The translations under genes were made by a program, and so were the position numbers. Of a DNA stretch of 64,000 nucleotides, positions 7,863 through 61,978 are shown piece after piece. The stretch is from Eledone cirrhosa (Eukaryota). Where the stretch lies: assembly GCA_964016885.1 (NCBI GenBank), contig OZ024743.1:369582001-369646000 (forward strand), in the 5' to 3' direction. Position 1 is the first letter of the stretch; every line of letters begins with the position of its first letter. The notes under the pieces were generated by a model that was given only the letters and a program-made list of their open reading frames with translations, ran no database searches and had not been told where the DNA came from.

Positions 7863-7898
7863 TCTTAACGTTTCGGACGCTAGTCCTTCATCAGAAAA
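7863..7898 (-). ncRNA. Minimal type I hammerhead ribozyme of Penelope type
   Basis: Minus strand TTTT-CTGATGA-A-GGAC TAGC GTCC-GAA-ACGT-T-AAGA, in a short island between simple repeats. Confidence 0.7.
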
Positions 7899-17295: not shown

Positions 17296-17338
17296 GTAAC
17301 CTACGCGTTTCATTCTTATTAGAAATCTTCAGGATTAC
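17296..17338 (-). ncRNA. Inverted copy of the family B hammerhead
   Basis: Reverse complement of 17607-17649. Confidence 0.85.
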
Positions 17339-17606: not shown

Positions 17607-17649
17607 GTAATCCTGAAGATTTCTAATAAGAATGAAACGCGTAGGTTAC
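17607..17649 (+). ncRNA. Minimal type I hammerhead ribozyme (canonical core)
   Basis: GTAATC-CTGAAGA-TTTCTAATAAGAAT-GAA-ACGCGT-A-GGTTAC. Stem I GUAAUC/GGUUAC, stem II UUCU/AGAA, GUA triplet. Confidence 0.85.
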
Positions 17650-19268: not shown

Positions 19269-19312
19269 AATGAAATGATATGTATGTATGTATGTATGTA
19301 TATATATGTATG

Positions 19313-19379
<67 letters not shown>

Positions 19380-19515
19380 ATATATATGTATGTATGTATG
19401 TATATATATATATATGTATGTATGTATGTATATATATATGTATGTATGTATGTATATGTATGTATGTATATATATATATGTATGTATGTATGTATGTATA
19501 TATATATATATATAT

Positions 19516-20759
19516 ATCAAAGTACTAGTTTGTAGGAAAGAAAACAAGGCGGCGGTCCCTTCTGGGAAATGGTCGTGCTCGGTGTGTAGGAAAGGCGTAG
19601 GTAGAAACTCCATTTTATGTCCTAAATGCAAAGTATGGGTGCATAAAAGATGTAGTGGGATCACAGGTAAGCTAACTAAGAACATAGATTTTACATGTGG
19701 CCGGTGCTCTGGTGCAATAAGTAGCAGCAAGTGCCCACAAACTACTAGCTCTTTCAATTGCGCAGAGGGTTCTATAGAAATAGTGGACAGCTTCCGTTAC
19801 CTGGGCGATAAAATCAGCAGTGGGGGAGGGTGCTCTGAAAGTACTGTAGCTAGAGTCAGAACTGGTTGGAAAAAGTTCAGAGAGCTTATACCACTATTAG
19901 CTGCTAAAGGGTTCTCACTAAAAATGAAAGGCAGGTTGTACGATGCCTGCATACGAACAGCAATGCTGCATGTCAGTGAGACCTGGGCATTGTGTGCAGA
20001 GGATATACGCAGACTAGAGAGGAACGAAGCTTGCATGCTCCGCTGGATGTGTAACAGTAATATACGTGAACGGCAAAGCATAAACGAACTAAGGAATAAA
20101 TTAGAGATAAGAGGGATCAGATGTTGTTTACTCGAGAGAAGGCTACGTTGGTATGGACACGTGATGCGCATGAAAGTCGATAGCTGTATAACAAAGTGCA
20201 GGGCAATAAAGATAGACGGTAGTCACGGAATAGGCAGACCTAGAAAAACCTGGGACGAGCTGATAAACTCCGACATCACACACTTACACCTCTCCAAGAC
20301 AATGTCACTGGACCGAGACCTTTGGCGGTACTCAGTAACAGAGAAGACCCGCCTTACCTAAATATATAGTAAAACCTACTCCAGCCAGTAGGCATCTCTA
20401 ACAAAATACACCCCGTCCCACCACCCCCACCCCCACCCGATCCACACCACCCCGTTCTATGTAAAGTTATGTTGGTGCCGCGCCATCGAGGCCGAAACAA
20501 ATGAGATCGTGTAGGTGTCACGACAAAAAAACACACAGTCCACGCTGTAATGTGGCCGTGTAGGCAACACGGTAAAAACCTCCCAGACCCACACTGTAAA
20601 TGTGGTTGGTGTTAGGAAGGGCATCCAACTGTAGAAAACCTGCCAGACAGTCCTATGCGAGCAAGACAACCACTCTTGCCTCAAGTGGGACTACCCCCGT
20701 CCAAACCCATGCAAGCGTGGAACACGGACGTTAAACGTTGATGATGATGATGATGATGA

Positions 20760-22625: not shown

Positions 22626-22675
<50 letters not shown>

Positions 22676-22723
22676 CATCAGGAAAGAAGGTTTACATGGT
22701 TTGCTATACAAAAAAGTTTTTAA

Positions 22724-22842
22724 TCACATAGCTTACATTTGTTTCACTGGGCTGGTATGTCTAGAGATCGCTATCCGCCTAATTTTGCGTCACTCGATCG
22801 CCAATACAGAATTATAACCAGTCAGATCTTCGGAGCATGCGA
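22724..22842 (-). ncRNA. Hammerhead-like fold with long stem II insert (core CCGAAGA, U4C) in a short element between (TA)n tracts
   Basis: Minus strand TCGCATGCT-CCGAAGA-TCTGACTGGT...ACCAGCCCAGT-GAA-ACAAATGT-A-AGCTATGTGA. Stem I is 9 bp with one bulge. Confidence 0.55.
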
Positions 22843-22844
22843 GA

Positions 22845-24508
<1,664 letters not shown>

Positions 24509-25277: not shown

Positions 25278-26946
25278 CCAAAGATCTCGGTCCAGTGACA
25301 TTGTCTTGGAGAGGTGTAAGTGTGTGAGGCCGGAATTTATCAAGGGTCTGCCTACTCTGTGGCTACCGTCTATTTTTATCGCCGTACACTTTTTTATACA
25401 GCTGTCGTCTTTCATGCGCATCATGTGACCATACCAACGTAGTCTTCTCTCGAGTAAACAACATCTGATCCCTCTTATTCCTAATTTCTCACTTAGTTCC
25501 TTTATCCTTTGCCATTCACGTATATTACTATTACACATCCAACGGAGCATGCAAGCTTCGCTCCTCCAGTCTGCGTATATCCTCTGCAGAGAATGCCCAA
25601 GTCTCAGTGCCATGTAACATTGATGTTCGTATGCAGGCATCATATAGGCTGCCTTTCATTTTTAGAGAGAAACCTTTAGCGGCCAATAGTGGTATAAGCT
25701 GTCTGAACTTTTTTCATCCCGTTCTGACTCTAGCTACTGTACTTTCAGAGCACCCTCCACCACTGCCTATTTTGTCACCTAGGTAACGGAAGGTGTCCAC
25801 TATTTCTATAGAACCATCTGTGCAATGGAATGAGCTAGTATTCTGTGGGCACTTGCTGCTACTTATTGCACCTGAGTACCGGCCACATATAAAATCTATA
25901 TTCTTAGTTAGCTTACCTGTGATCCCACTACATCTTTTATGCACCCATACTTTGCATTTGCATTTGGGACATAAAATGAAGTTTCAGGCTACTCCTTTCC
26001 TACACACTGAGCATGGCCATTTCCAAGATGGGTCTAGTGCCCTATTTTCCTTCTTACAAACTAGAACTTTAGTCTTAGACAGGTTAATTTTAAGGCCTTT
26101 TAATTCTAGGCCATGCTTCCATGTTTGGAATTTCTTCTCTAGTTCAGCCATTGATTCAGATATGAGCGTTAGATCATCTGCGTATAGCAGTTCCCATGGG
26201 CAGCCGGTCCTGAACTCCTCTGTTATAGCCTGAAGGGCAATAATAAATAGGAGGGGGCTAAGGACGGAGCCCTGATGAACACCAACTTTTACGCTAAACT
26301 CTTCACTATATTTGTTGTTAATTCTAACCTTGCTGACTGTTTCTTTATACAGGGCTTGTATAGCTCTCACAAGCCATTCGTCAACACCTAGTTTTCTGAG
26401 AGCCCACCAGATAATCGAACGGGGGACTCTGTCGAAGGCTTTCTCCAAGTCGACAAAAGCTAAGTATAGGGGTTTACTTTTAGCTAGGTACTTCTCCTGT
26501 AGTTGTCGTACAATGAAAAGAGCGTCTGTGGAACTTTTGCCTGACACAAACCCGAACTGCATTTCATCCAGATCAATTCTCTCTCTGATTAGTTGTGCTA
26601 TTACTTTTTCCGTGACCTTCATGACCTGGTCGATTAATTTAATGCCTCTATAGTTACTCCTATCTAGGGCATCTCCTTTACCCTTGTAGCAGTTAATGAT
26701 GATGCTGCTACGCCAGTCCTTCGGAACAACCCCATTCTGTATGACTTGGTTTACTATCCGGGTGACCATGGTGTGTCCCACCGAACCAGATGCCTTCAGC
26801 ATTTCAGCAACTATTTCCGAAGGCCCAGCCGCCTTACCTGTCTTCATATCTTTGATTGCCTTACTTATTATACTACCTTCAACTAACACTGCTGGTCCCT
26901 CTATTGGGTCGATGTGGGGGAGACTGTCTTTCTCCCATTTATTCTC

Positions 26947-26948
<2 letters not shown>
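25277..26948 (-). mobile_element. RTE-clade LINE RT domain fragment, frameshifted
   Basis: [32 protein letters not shown]. Both ends abut (TA)n. Confidence 0.93.
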
Positions 26949-26983
<35 letters not shown>

Positions 26984-27313
26984 GTATATATGTGTATATG
27001 TATATGTATATATGTGTATATATATATGTATATATATATGTATATATATATGTATATGTATATATGTATATATGTGTATATATATATGTATATATATGTA
27101 TATATATGTATATATATGTATATGTATATATATGTATATATATATGTATATATATGTATATATATGTATATATATGTATATATATATATATGTATATATA
27201 TATGTATATATATGTATATATATATGTATATAGAGAAAGAGAAAGAGCGAGAGAGAGAAAACACTGGAAGGTAATTTCCGTAGTGGTAGAGCACTCAATC
27301 CATGGGACGAGTC

Positions 27314-46547: not shown

Positions 46548-47876
46548 ATCATCATCATCATCATCATCATCATCAACGTTTAACGTCCGTGTTCCATGCT
46601 TGCATGGGTTTGGACGGGGGTAGTCCCACTTGAGGCAAGAGTGATTGTCTTGCTCGCATAGGACTGTCTGGCAGGTTTTCTACAGTTGGATGCCCTTCCT
46701 AACACCAACCACATTTACAGTGTGGGTCTGGGAGGTTTTTACCGTGTTGCCTACACGGCCACATTACAGCGTGGACTGTGTGTTTTTTTGTCGTGACACC
46801 TACACGATCTCATTTGTTTTGGCCTGGATGGCGCGGCACCAACATAACTTTACATAGAACGGGGTGGTGTGGATGGGGTGGGGGTGGTGGCGGGACAGGG
46901 TGTATTTTGTTAGAGATGCCTACTGGCAAGGCGGGTCTTCTCTGTTACTGAGTACCGCCAAAGGTCTCGGTCCAGTGACATTGTCTTGGAGAGGTGTAAG
47001 TGTGTGAGGTCGGAGTTTATCAGCTCATCCCAGGTTTTTCTAGGTCTGCCTATTCCATGGCTACCGTCTATCTTTATTGCCCTGCACTTTGTTATACAGC
47101 TATCGACTTTCATGCGCATCACGTGTCCATACCAACGCAGCCTTCTCTCGAGTAAACAACATCTGATCCCTCTTATCTCTAATTTTTTCCTTAGTTCGTT
47201 TATGCTTTGCCGTTCACGTATATTACTGTTACACATCCAGCGGAGCATGCAAGCTTCGTTCCTCTCTAGTCTGCGTATATCCTCTGCACACAATGCCCAG
47301 GTCTCACTACCATGCAACATTGCTGTTCGTATGCAGGCATCGTACAACCTGCCTTTCATTTTTAGGGTGAACCCTTTAGCAGCTAATAGTGGTATAAGCT
47401 CTCTGAACTTTTTCCAACCAGTTCTGACTCTAGCTACAGTACTTTCAGAACACCCTCCCCCACTGCTGATTTTATCGCCCAGGTAACGGAAGCTGTCCAC
47501 TATTTCTATAGAACCCTCTGCGCAATTGAAAGAGCTAGTATTTTGTGGGCACTTGCTGCTACTTATTGCACCAGAACACCGGCCACATCTAAAATCTATG
47601 TTCTTAGTTAGCTTACCTGTGATCCCACTACATCTTTTATGCACCCATACTTTGCATTTAGGACATAAAATGGAGTTTCTACCTACGCCTTTCCTACACA
47701 CCGAGCACGACCATTTCCCAAAAGAGCGTCTGTGGTACTTTTGCCTGACACAAACCCAAACTGTATTTCATCTAGGTCAATTCTCTCTCTGATTAGTTGC
47801 GCTATTACTTTTTCCGTGACCTTCATGACCTGGTCGATTAATTTAATGCCTCTTTTAAATTAATCGACCAGGTCAT
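46548..47876 (-). mobile_element. RTE LINE, same subfamily as 19516-20760, with internal deletion and terminal fold-back
   Basis: 263-aa ORF nearly identical to the 19.5-kb copy. Jump to upstream RT sequence at about 47720. 22-bp inverted repeat at 47825-47876. Confidence 0.92.
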
Positions 47877-50354: not shown

Positions 50355-51970
50355 TCATCATCATCGTTTAACGTCTATCTTCCATGCTAGCATGTGTTTA
50401 GACGGGAAGTGTCCTTCTTGAGGCAAGATTGGTCATCTCGCTCGTATAGACTGTCTGGCAGGTTTCCTAACACCAACCACGTTTACAGTGTGGACTGGGA
50501 GGTTTTTACCATGTTACCTACACGGCCATATTACAGCGTGGACTGTGTGTTTTTTTTGTTGTGACACCTACACAACCTCATTTATTTAGGACTGAATGTT
50601 GTGGTACCAACATAACTTTACACAGAAAAAGGTGGTGTAGATGGGGGTAGGGGTAGTGGGATGGGGGTGTATTTTTGGTTAGGAGGCACCTACTGACTGT
50701 AGGTTTCGCTTTGTACTTAGGCAAGGTGGGTCTTCTGTATTACTGCGTAGCGCCAAAGATCTCGGTCCAGTGACATTGTCTTGGAGAGGTGTAAGTGTGT
50801 AAGGTCGGAATTTATCAAATCATCCCAGGTTTTTCTGGGTCTGCCTACTCCGGGGCTTCCATCTATTTTGATGGCCCTGCACTTTTTTATGCAGCTGTCG
50901 TATGTCATGCGCATCACGTGACCATACCAACGTAGTCTTTTCTCGAGTAAGCAGCACCTGATCCCTCTTATTCCTAAGTTCTCACTTAGTTCCTTTATCC
51001 TTTGCCGTTCACGTATATTACTATTACACATCCAATGGAGTATGCGAGCTTTGTTCCTCTCCAGTCTGCGTAGGCCCTCTGCACGTAATGCCCATGTCTC
51101 ACTGCCATGTAACATTGCTGTTCGTATGCAGGCATCATACAGCCTGCCTTTCATTTTTAGAGAGAAACCTTTAGCGGCTAATAGTGGTATAAGCTCTCTG
51201 AACTTTTTCCATCCCGTTCTGACTCTAGCTACTGTACTTTCAGAGCAGCCTCCACCACTGCTGATTTTGTCACCCAGGTAACGGAAGGTGTCCACTATTT
51301 CTATAGAACCATCTGTGCAATGGAATGAGCTAGTATTCTGTGGGCACTTGCTGCTACTTATTGCACCTGAGCACTGGCCGCATATAAAATCTATATTCTT
51401 CGTTAGCTTACCTCTGATCCCATTACATCTTTTATGCACCCATAAAATGGGACATAAAATGGAATTTCTACCTACTCCTTACCTACACACTGAGCATGGC
51501 CATTTCCCAGAGGGGACCAGTGCCCTGTTTTCCTTCCTACATACTAGAACTTTAGTCTTAGACAAGTTAATTTTAAGGCCTTTTGATTCTAGGCCATGCT
51601 TCCAAGTTTGGAATTTCTCCTCTAGTTCAGCCATTGATTCAGCTATGAGTGTTAGATCATCTGCGTATAGAAGTTCCCATGGGCAGCCGGTCTTGAACTC
51701 ATTTATTATAGCCTGAAGGGCAATAATAAATAGGAGGGGGCTAAGGACAGAGCCCTGATGAACATCAACTTTTACGCTAAATTCTTCTCTACATTCGTTG
51801 TTAATTCTAACCTTGCTGTTTCTTTATACATGGCTTGTATAGCTCTCACGAGCCATTCATCAACACCTAGTTTTCTAAGAGCCAGATAATGGAGCGGAGG
51901 ACTCTGTCAAAGGCTTTCTCCAAGTCAACAAAAGCTAGGTATAGGGGTTTACTTTTAGCTATGTACTTCT
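50355..51970 (-). mobile_element. RTE LINE, 5'-truncated at (TA)n
   Basis: 240-aa ORF plus upstream RT motifs ([24 protein letters not shown]). Confidence 0.92.
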
Positions 51971-52189
51971 ATATATATATATATACATATATATATAATA
52001 TATAAATTAATAAAAATAATGAATAAAAACAAAGAAACAGTTCCTTATATTAAAAAATTCATCATTTTACGATTGTTTCTAGGATATATATGTTTGTGTT
52101 GGTATGTATATCATATAGATCTATGTAAAATTTTTACAAACTTTTACATATTTTTACATACTTACACATATATATGCTGTCTTCAGAAA

Positions 52190-52253
<64 letters not shown>

Positions 52254-52455
52254 GATAACAAGTTATCATTATAGGTAATCTAGTTAAAGGTTGTGAGTAC
52301 TCTGTGTTGTGGATACCTTTAATGTACGGCTCTCTTTGACTCAACAAGATGCTTCCATAGTTATGCAGCGAGTTCGCGGTAATTTCTATGCAGGTTATAC
52401 TTGGAGTAATAATAGTTAAAGAATGAAGAGTAACATAGTGTACATAGATATCTAC

Positions 52456-52566
52456 GTACTCTGATGTGTTGACCAGATGTAAATAATGTATTGGAGATCA
52501 AATGACGCAACCTTAAGCGATTAGCGAACTCTAGACTTACCTGATCAACGAAACAATTATCAGTAC
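52456..52566 (+). ncRNA. Hammerhead-like fold with long stem II insert (core CTGATGT, A9U) in mini-element 52413-52621
   Basis: GTACT-CTGATGT-GTTGACCAG...CTGATCAAC-GAA-ACAATTAT-C-AGTAC. The element has 27-bp inverted ends (52413-52439 and 52595-52621) and abuts (AT)n. Confidence 0.55.
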
Positions 52567-52851
52567 TTTAAATAAAGCCCTTATCGTACAGCCAACTATG
52601 TTACTCTTCATTGTTTAACTATATATATATATATATATATATATCAGATAGGGTGTGGTAAAAAAAAACCAGGTGGACCATAACCCACCAGAGTACTCGA
52701 TACTTGCGGTAGTAGAGTGGGTATTATGAAATATTCAGGACCCCGATGGCTGAGCTCCGGCTGTTTCGAAAGTTAGATCCAGTTTGGATCTAGCTGTCGA
52801 AATGGGTAGAGTTCAGCCGTCGGGGTTCTGAATCCTTTCATATATACATAT

Positions 52852-53555
52852 ATTGAAGGGGGCATGTTCTGGCCTTCTGCAAGAGCATTCTGGGAGGGTT
52901 GAGCTCTTGGGGTTGGTGGTGATGTGGGCTTTCATATTTTTAGCACAGGAATAACTAAGTTTCACCCTGTGTCTATTGAAGATAGGGCTGTATTTATGAC
53001 CTGTGGGGAAGTGTTTATCTAGGAGTGCTAAGAATTTGCTACCTACATTGGTTCTAACTCTGAGGGAGAAGGGTGGGCAGAACCAAATTATTTTTTTTAT
53101 TTCTACTTCTTTTCTTGCTGGTAGTGTGATTTGGAGGGGAGTAAGAAATTTGTCAGGGAAGCTGCTGTTGTCTTCATCAACAACAGTGTAATGTATCCAC
53201 AATAGTCTAGGAAGCTGAAGTTACGTCTACTCGACTAAACCAACAACAGGAGGTCAAAACATAAGTGGGTATGACTGAGAGTCGGTTTAAAGAATGCTTC
53301 CTTAACCATGAGACGACTTTTAGACACTCAGATAAGCTATCATCTATGAAGCTGACAATCCACATATGGTTACTCAAAGATGCATACATGGCTTACTCCA
53401 TACAATGGAAAGTTCTAACCAAACTAGGCCATATGGAAATGGGAACTTGTCTTGTGGGCTGTGGATCGATGAACGAATAAATATCTTACAGAGATTATGT
53501 AATAGTACTTGTCTCATTACAAGATCTGACTTTTTTAATTGTAAGCAATATTAAA
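52852..53555. mobile_element. Penelope-like element 3' fragment with 5' inversion: RT-EN linker on minus, GIY-YIG endonuclease on plus
   Basis: Minus: IIWFCPPFS..V.TNVG.KFL.LLDKHFP....IFNR..VKLSYSC..NMK...CSCRR. Plus from about 53183: QCNVSTIV*EAEV...T*VGMTESRFKE...NHETTFR...HIWLLK...IQWKVL. Confidence 0.85.
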
Positions 53556-60750: not shown

Positions 60751-61978
60751 CATTCTCTATCTCTGTCTATTCTCTATTCTCTATCTCTATCTTTCTATCT
60801 ATCTGTTTCATGCTGTTATACTCTCTATCTTTCTGTCTATCTGTTTCATGCTGTTATTTTCACACTCTATCTCTTTATCTATCTCTTTCAAATTTAATCT
60901 ATCTCCCTATCTCTTTCACACTATATCTCTATATCAATTTCATTCATATTCAGTCTATCTGTCTCTATCCACCAATCTCTTTCACACTTTATCACTGCCT
61001 ATCTCTTTCACAATATATCTCTTACTTCAGCACATTTCTATGAATTTTTTAATTGTGTGTATTCACACATATTTATATAAATATAATTTTTATGTGTGTA
61101 CATTTGGGTGTGTGTCTGTATGTGTGCACGTATGTGTCTGTATATAAATATAGTATCATGTGCGTGTAAAGGCAGTGAAAATTGCAGTCATTTGTTTTCA
61201 GTCCTGTACTGGGGTTGATTCTTCCTCTATATCTCTTTCTCACTTCCTCTCTTTTGCTATCTGTTTCTCTGGAAGAACTTTGCTGTATTTAGATTGGAGA
61301 TGGGTGAACTCTGCCAGGTTTAAATGCTCAAGTCACTCCTGTGATACAATCAGGAGTTGAGGTCCCCTGCATGGTTGTGTGTGAAAATAAAATGTTACTT
61401 GCTACATATGTACACATAAAACAATTATATATATATATAAAAATATATTTATTTATTTATTTATTTATTTATAATAATAATGAGCAGGAACAAAGTATCA
61501 ATATAACACCATTATGTTTATTCGCATGTGACACATGTTTCTCAATCGATCAGCTCAAGGTACGATTGGTAGTGATCATGCTGGACTCTGGAATCAATAG
61601 CTCATCAGGCGTGTGGATTCTCAATTATATATATATATATATACATACTCACACACACATATATATATATATACAAATGCACAGTACTTTGTCATCTCCT
61701 TCATATGATTCAACTGCGTGCGCACACTCACATGCGCATGCACACAAACACACACGCACACATACACACTCTGTGAACATTTATCAACAAATAGATAGTG
61801 ACTACACACATAAACAGGCAAACACTCATACACATATGCTGCACAGGGCTATCTTTTCAAACCATTGACATCAGTTAATACACATAAACACATATATGCA
61901 AACTCCCATATGTGCTGCACATGGTCCCTCATCAAAGCAATAACATCAGTTACTACACACACAGATACCCCCCCCCCC

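Follow-up and report, generated by a model that had tools for sequence, protein, structure and literature searches.

Long conserved arms in stem II of hammerhead ribozymes from Hydra-clade Penelope-like retroelements of Eledone cirrhosa

Known relatives and two long-armed hammerheads

The hammerheads of Penelope-like retroelements (PLEs), and the Hydra clade to which the elements described here belong, are already known; the variant with a long arm in stem II is apparently undescribed. In the portions of Craig et al. (2021; PMC8557442) drawn on here, Hydra-clade elements share with ours a single RT-GIY-YIG ORF, the motif marks, insertion at (TA)n and, at the 3' end, a type I hammerhead, in which U.U closure of stem II is common. 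In the part of their File S2 used here, Hydra hammerheads have a stem II of 3-7 bp with loops of 3-10 nt, whereas the stem II regions found here measure 79-82 nt (and also 56-63, 85-92 and ~100 nt). Unlike the elements in those portions, ours have a fixed U4C or A9U, a 3' UTR of ~730 nt, and a tail of ~165 nt rather than 30-40 bp. Enlargement of loop II is not without precedent: two Selaginella PLE-X1 hammerheads have loops of 35 and 29 nt (PMC8557442 File S2); these are of another clade and shorter, and the same part of the file reports no conserved internal motif in them.

The minimal hammerheads described from metazoan PLEs (Cervera and de la Pena, 2014; PMC4209133) likewise lie in the pLTR and have a short stem I and a palindromic stem III, which points to dimer formation. 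In the sections of that paper drawn on here, they have a helix II of 7-8 bp with a highly conserved G10.1-C11.1 pair, whereas in our elements an irregular arm of ~25 bp is added and positions 10.1-11.1 are G-C or G.U in 4 of 16 aligned rows; the same sections describe the minimal hammerheads as weak and suggest a need for additional factors. The Poseidon element PAc (Frangieh et al., 2024; PMC11167929) also combines a hammerhead with two 3' ends that delimit a tail (two reverse-transcription starts), and is a model for help by protein, because its hammerhead cleaved only once the element's protein was added. In the portions of that paper used here, no arm is described, the ORF starts within stem II and the binding site lies downstream; in our elements, by contrast, the ORF starts ~390 nt after the hammerhead box.

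No description of such arms was found in the literature that we covered, a search that left aside supplements such as the figures of PMC4209133, the work of Lunse et al. on PLE hammerhead variants, and Repbase. Two open questions are addressed, i.e., why PLEs keep weak hammerheads, and how a telomerase-related enzyme recognizes its RNA. One element's ribozyme has been shown to need protein, but the RNA handle is unmapped there. In engineered aptazymes an add-on domain is placed on stem II, as it is here, although here the domain has no known ligand.

We analyzed a window of 64,000 nucleotides from Eledone cirrhosa (contig OZ024743.1, positions 369,582,001 to 369,646,000), in which a 55-nt domain inserted in stem II of two hammerheads had been proposed. 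The two 55-mers, at 52487-52541 on the plus strand and 22754-22808 on the minus strand, match without gaps at 45 of 55 positions (next-best ungapped match over the whole window and both strands, 29/55), and each is flanked by the 5' and 3' halves of a type I minimal hammerhead (a CYGANGN box, then GAAA-palindrome-UH). As had been noted, stems I and II differ in sequence between the two copies with their pairing kept, an apical CGC/GCG hairpin is present, and each core has one deviation, A9U in the copy at 52.4 kb and U4C in that at 22.8 kb.

At 52.4 kb, a 5'-truncated pLTR of subfamily A (52448-52622, plus strand) runs up to a (TA)n tract and matches the family-A pLTR at 95% identity over 175 nt. 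In front of it lies an inverted piece of the same insertion (52241-52439, minus strand), comprising a pLTR 3' end and the ~165-nt tail, with 91% identity to the family-A tail. The 5' strand of stem I (52456-52460) and the box CUGAUGU (52461-52467), carrying the A9U that is fixed in subfamily A, are followed by a stem II region of 82 nt (52468-52549), made up of a lower stem of ~9 bp, an A-rich 5' bulge and the conserved 55-nt arm, an irregular hairpin with 17 modelled pairs. The arm contains a lower 2x1 loop (52489-52492/52533-52535), an upper 2x1 loop (52500-52503/52523-52525, with a private G>A at 52500 in this copy), and an apical stem of 3 bp (52506-52508/52517-52519) closed by a variable loop of 8 nt. 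The remainder of the ribozyme (52550-52576) comprises the GAAA box (52550-52553), stem III, which reads CAAUUA here against a family majority of CAAUUG, the 3' strand of stem I, and AAUAAA at 52571-52576; from hammerhead anatomy, cleavage is predicted after 52561.

The second copy (22673-22847, minus strand) is a 5'-truncated pLTR of subfamily B within a (TA)n tract, and is 98.9% identical to the pLTR of an intact element at locus L061. Its hammerhead (22734-22833) has the box CCGAAGA (22833-22827; U4C), a stem II region of 81 nt, a U.U closure, GAAA (22745-22742), a near-palindromic CAAAUG and a predicted UA cleavage site. The arm at 22754-22808 has its lower loop at 22806-22803/22762-22760 and its upper loop at 22795-22792/22772-22770. 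Fold-back inversions are common in these elements. Adjoining the 52.4-kb copy are an ORF fragment of another Hydra-type element and, in inverted orientation, a ribozyme-like 3' piece from a different PLE family (52813-53220, minus strand, and 52647-52835).

Element identity and the ribozyme core

The two elements had been described as otherwise dissimilar, but they are the 5'-truncated pLTR ends of sister subfamilies of a Hydra-clade PLE. Subfamilies A and B are identical at 33/46 positions just 3' of the ribozyme, at 67% of the tail and at 75% of the ORF DNA, with the upstream UTR at shuffle level (51% vs 49%), and in the RT tree A, B, B2 and I group together with support of 100/100. The arm was therefore not a module common to unrelated elements, but was inherited by descent in sister subfamilies. 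Longer copies have an RT/GIY-YIG frame upstream of the ribozyme, and at locus L061 there is a complete subfamily-B element, whose frame is open over 808 codons and which has an armed hammerhead in each of two pLTRs, 3.5 kb apart.

In that frame the RT precedes a C-terminal GIY-YIG domain (YRDD at 365, YIG at 702). Homologues carry PF01541; a Pfam scan returned no family, a PDB sequence search with the ORF gave no hits, and no relative was found in the viral collection. Among the Hydra marks, RWK is present at 51 and DKT at 134, while GxKF/Y is absent; a DKG string at 58 is off the motif position. The linker has CxCX5C at 668 and no CX2-5CxxC, and CxxC and CxH follow at 766 and 794. Insertion at (TA)n, pLTRs and the hammerhead are also as in the Hydra clade. 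Assignment was by the motif marks listed in the portions of PMC8557442 used here, our RT trees being without named Hydra references, and the same motifs occur in Hydra elements in the part of the supplement consulted (Craig et al., 2021; PMC8557442). A Neptune-clade label, considered at first, was dropped because the linker lacks CX2-5CxxC.

First-look candidates for the repeat families of the two window copies numbered 1,880 and 1,285 in this 3.0-Gb genome (40 scored for each), and a pattern for the core of the insert gave 1,447 exact matches, compared with none for a control. Family B copies are 98-99% identical, and the family is young. A set of loci anchored outside the insert yielded 135 distinct, complete candidate copies, two of them false. 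Twelve subfamily lines were drawn from the clusters, 11 with 2-39 copies and G with a single copy, and the arm is retained in all 12. Copies have 3' ends at two places, ~70 and 230-240 nt after GAAA, and the tail between them is ~165 nt in both A and B. In PLEs a tail of 30-40 bp is usual; this one is far longer, and may hold the real protein-binding or RT-start structure. In three runs of RNA data, matches made up small shares and were short pieces outside the ribozyme, or nothing.

A test of whether the insert is always enclosed by hammerhead halves had been suggested, and all 30 insert-anchored loci inspected lay within a pLTR hammerhead, intact or truncated. The 3' half was intact in 29 and singly mutated in one; the 5' box was intact and in place in 23, shifted or decayed in three, and lost by truncation or deletion in four. 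With the structural selection described below, this bears out the view that stem II houses the arm as an accessory domain of structured RNA.

In both A and B the GAAA box and UH site are intact, and the first box carries the fixed deviation: all 30 family-A loci have A9U, and all 30 family-B loci have U4C. These loci were chosen by likeness to the window copies, and loci anchored on other features agree. Among the 16 aligned rows, U4C occurs in eight and A9U in four, and sister subfamilies with the same arm (H, J, K and A3) have an intact CUGANGA-type box. Because the deviations are fixed in subfamilies and the box is intact in sisters, we regard them as variants carried by transposing lineages rather than as decay. 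Of the two readings first offered for these cores, variant therefore stands, while dead does not fit family B, which is young and has an intact ORF. The stems also covary, with two-sided changes in 3/5 pairs of stem I and 1/5 pairs of lower stem II; stem III is the palindrome CAAUUG, or CAAAUG in B. In the portions of PMC3088659 used here, U4C is reported to lower activity in vitro, yet to be tolerated in a viroid. Among the Hydra hammerheads in the part of the supplement to PMC8557442 consulted, stem II often has a U.U at its base. For Poseidon PAc, the portions of PMC11167929 used here report that insertion in vitro did not depend on cleavage. In the CAAUUG lineages A/B, E-G and S, the cleavage site together with stem I (52559-52564 and equivalents) mostly reads GUHAGY, a likeness to a splice donor that may be coincidence.

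A comparison with Rfam, as had been proposed, gave no family match for either hammerhead, only unrelated hits with E values of 8.6 and 3.2. Rfam is blind to these hammerheads because the long arm breaks the covariance models, and long-armed hammerheads escape the usual descriptors as well, even though there are thousands in this genome. In a scan of the whole window, the 150 of 283 matches listed were microsatellite-driven miRNA hits below the gathering score.

Constraint on the arm and its internal loops

Between the majority sequences of A and B, the arm is identical at 44/55 positions (80%), compared with 99/186 and 75/150 fourfold-degenerate sites (53% and 50%); on this comparative evidence, the arm is under selection. 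We aligned 16 real copies, i.e., 14 representatives plus the two window copies. Columns 38-86 are gap-free in all 16 rows, and the flanking bulge has indels. The 17-pair model of the arm has 91.9% of its cells paired, with two-sided changes in 5/17 pairs, compared with 28-42% paired when the model was slid. Between A or B and E, 16/17 pairs are retained, against a null mean of 10.0-12.9 when substitution types were kept (P 0.0001-0.018); with the same type of null, A versus G gave P values of 0.006-0.06. For A versus B, P ranged from 0.02 to 0.28, the value of 0.28, which is not significant, coming from a paired-only null. A single branch (E/F/G versus A/B) accounts for most of the two-sided changes, and two of the changes are at CpG sites. 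RNAalifold alone predicted six pairs, single-sequence folding z-scores were modest (-0.5 to -2.8), and conservation of the arm does not exceed that of the pLTR sequence 3' of the ribozyme (mean pairwise values, 0.75 and 0.79).

The conserved feature of the arm is a 2x1 internal loop, 5'-X-A-N-U / A-G-X'-3', which occurs twice, 11 nt apart, with the lower loop ~11 bp from the hammerhead core. In the lower loop, A, U, A and G are present in 16/16 rows; in the upper loop, A, U and A are present in 16/16 and G in 15/16. The N of the loop and the flanking R-Y pair vary among the rows. The bulged-G (sarcin-ricin/loop E) motif has AGUA opposite GAA with a sheared A.G, and is similar in having an A-N-U strand with a bulged N opposite a purine strand. 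We rejected this identity because the pair above U-A is G.U in nine, A-U in four and G-C in three of the 16 rows, and the bulged base varies. That pair covaries as G.U/A-U/G-C/C-G, and is not a sheared A.G.

The original prediction had seen RUGA before the apical hairpin, as possibly tandem G-A or kink-turn-like. A kink-turn or box C/D motif has conserved tandem G.A and A.G pairs following a bulge of 3 nt, and in subfamily B alone a kink-turn, box C/D or SECIS-like module can be drawn, with U-G-A opposite G-A-U. In whole subfamilies, however, the supposed RUGA is GUAA or GUGG, so that UGA becomes UAA or UGG, and the opposite 3' GA is mostly missing, that pair reading AU, GA, AA, GG, AG or UU (columns 70-71 are A10 G4 U2 and U9 A4 G3; column 54 is G12 A4). 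A SECIS element would be expected to have a quartet of RUGA and GA and a long helix II, but the apical helix here is 3 bp and the intact ORF has no in-frame UGA; nor is there any Rfam match. Since neither RUGA nor tandem G-A is conserved, the arm is no kink-turn or SECIS element, and we give a module of this kind almost no credence.

Alternatively, the arm might be a tolerated outgrowth, produced, for example, by fold-back during reverse transcription and kept since stem II must pair, with the loop a coincidence. Fold-back inversions are frequent in these elements, there are arms of 50-101 nt with unrelated sequences, several without the loop, and template-switch repair of palindromes could mimic covariation. 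We nevertheless consider an outgrowth improbable, because the invariant positions are unpaired or wobble, which palindrome repair would erase, and because arm length is fixed in 16/16 rows. In addition, the seven internal deletions seen in family A are all different single copies, and the sole multiplied deletion lies inside a larger duplicated segment. The latter is "family D", ~30 near-identical copies without the apical hairpin, which we rejected as proof that the hairpin is dispensable: the flanks were common to 25/25 loci inspected, indicating one old copy within a multiplied segment. Its copies are found on most large contigs, several near contig ends (L196-L220; G000:C19:106890-107090, C15:9450-9650, C13:86433-86633), and the segment is a candidate for a recently multiplied subtelomeric segment or a large, so far unnamed mobile element.

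The invariant ends of the arm also raise the idea that it is, or ends, a spliceosomal intron, with GT...TRAC...YAG spanning 47 nt and removal leaving a short stem II. GTATT and TAGAC are invariant in the 12 subfamily lines, and the portions of PMC4209133 used here note that PLE pLTRs can hold introns beside the ribozyme. Yet GT and an A at +3 are the only donor features, which makes for a poor site, none of the seven family-A internal deletions removes the 47 nt, and 0/30 family-B copies anchored on the ORF start have a 5' end at AG, those spanning the arm aligning as one piece. The lower loop explains the same letters, and family N has the loop without the GT, so we judge an intron very improbable. 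Two further candidates were set aside. Kissing between self-complementary apical loops was rejected because, by eye, the loops are neither palindromic nor conserved. A bZIP-like site acting at the DNA level, TGACGCAA, was the other; it was dropped, since whole subfamilies lack the site while pairing persists.

The loop recurs in three other long-armed groups of this genome (M, N and C), whose arms differ in sequence; its chance rate in shuffles was 0-3% per sequence. Group M was found through hammerhead boxes alone, not through the loop, using a spacer of 45-75 nt (7,858 matches vs 366), and by reading, 25/30 loci fetched in this search belong to the group. Its arms are 56-63 nt with a covarying lower stem and one loop per arm, in which A is present in 20/21, U in 21/21, A in 19/21 and G in 19/21; a copy in the window, at 61530-61608 (minus strand), has an arm of ~60 nt with one 2x1 loop. 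Group M (L417-L446, L447-L516) consists of abundant PLE-like repeats with two 3' ends and a tail that has a short block in common with family A. No ORF was found in 20 + 30 + 20 loci, the shared upstream part being at most ~1.15 kb and microsatellite-rich, and the group is possibly non-autonomous. In family N (arms of 85-92 nt), one representative has the loop twice and the other once; an ORF was looked for in this family and not found. Lineage C, another Hydra-type lineage, has a stem II arm of ~100 nt that cannot be aligned to that of A/B above shuffles, save for a weak score for B; a decayed copy lies in the window at 52068-52186 (minus strand). The loop occurs once in its arm, with both sides intact in 19/23 copies, by a motif that was defined after sight of A/B and M and loosened (U.U above allowed) after sight of C.

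Five other long-armed families lack the loop, with arms of 95 nt (L164, L088), 84 nt (L493), 51 nt (L033), 50 nt (L433) and 56 nt (L462), and the single subfamily G copy failed the loop test. In two cases stem II is branched, and its lengthening looks recurrent in this genome. In the short-armed lineages S (20 nt) and T (~30 nt), no loop was found in ~700 nt around the hammerheads, by a scan of limited sensitivity that also missed the upper loop of B. From the absence in S and T, we infer that the loop is not a general need of Hydra RTs.

Possible roles of the arm

The stem II region is 79-82 nt in the A/B subfamilies and 11-31 nt in relatives from other animals. Among 94 loci of related elements in metagenome and genome collections, none has the arm. 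A covariance model found short hammerheads only, and in a descriptor search of the same loci the stem II region measured 11-31 nt in the credible hits, two longer ones (34 and 69 nt) being judged false and dropped. As these relatives and the published Hydra hammerheads are short, we take the long arms to be derived within this host lineage. A/B, C and S together make up one RT clade with an open fork, S being as close to A/B as is C, and the short-armed S and T thrive in the same genome. Sixteen loci (L364-L379) in bacterial genome records that are mostly metagenome-assembled encode Hydra-like PLEs, many with hammerheads; most likely, these represent animal host DNA mixed into the bins.

Our best guess for the nested arm remains a protein-binding or tertiary role, as originally proposed. 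We tentatively favor the idea, at a little under an even chance, that the two 2x1 loops are a candidate binding handle for the element's own reverse transcriptase, which would help a weak, dimer-dependent ribozyme. In a transcript running through tandem pLTRs, the arm would fold within each ribozyme, and the element's protein, bound to the arm loops, would favor pairing of the two ribozymes via the palindromic stem III. A protein-aided dimer could offset the weak core (U4C, A9U, unpaired 10.1-11.1). In addition, or instead, the protein might select its own RNA for reverse transcription from the 3' ends ~70 and 230-240 nt downstream. Its own enzyme is the simplest binder, given that one PLE hammerhead needs protein and that minimal PLE hammerheads cleave poorly alone. 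Against the arm as handle, the protein-binding site of Poseidon is placed in the first 172 nt of the ORF in the portions of Frangieh et al. (2024; PMC11167929) used here.

The position of the loop bears on a second reading, in which the loop, or else the A-rich bulge, would form a tertiary RNA-RNA contact, either to an extended stem I or to the dimer partner. Such a contact would stand in for the usual one of loop I with loop II and steady the deviant core without protein. In A/B, M and N, the loop falls at arm positions 12-21, a similar spacing from the core in each; stem I continues past a bulge in subfamily B; and the portions of PMC3088659 used here suggest that tertiary contacts outside the core compensate for its natural variants. 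However, the loop of lineage C is at arm position 37, far from stem I, and the second loop of A/B and N, 11 nt further out, could not also reach stem I. By eye, there is also no covarying complement nearby for the 8-nt apical loop or the bulge. We consider a tertiary contact unlikely, and the loops as a handle for the reverse transcriptase the better guess.

Binding of the arm by a host protein, serving nuclear export, germline localization, or double-stranded-RNA binding or editing, would explain the repeated rise of long arms in this host only. It would suit a loop common to several lineages of one genome with unrelated arm sequences, and an arm found in 0/94 loci from other animals and set against short-stemmed published Hydra hammerheads; bulged hairpins can also be localization signals of retrotransposon RNA. 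This reading has no named candidate protein, and it sits badly with the short-armed S and T thriving in the same genome; we regard it as distinctly unlikely.

Returning to the reverse transcriptase as binder, a broader version is that these are natural protein-gated hammerheads. The long arms of several PLE lineages would have converged on, or kept, the loop, which A/B and N carry twice at a spacing of one helical turn. The telomerase-like RT would dock on the loop, switching on dimer cleavage and claiming the RNA; group M, which looks ORF-less, would keep the loop so as to borrow the enzyme. We offer this as speculation, and think it unlikely in its full extent. With a young family that has an intact ORF, a selected arm, a recurring motif of four nucleotides and short-armed sister lineages as natural controls, the question of protein help is directly testable.

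Other repeats in the window include ordinary short minimal hammerheads of other PLE families at 17302-17332 (minus strand), 17613-17643 (plus strand) and 7867-7894 (minus strand), the first two forming an inverted pair. Several near-identical fragments of a non-LTR retrotransposon, which we take to be RTE-like, lie at 19279-20361, 46910-47767, 50717-51478 and 25984-27294, and have a PHD-finger match inside the RT frame.
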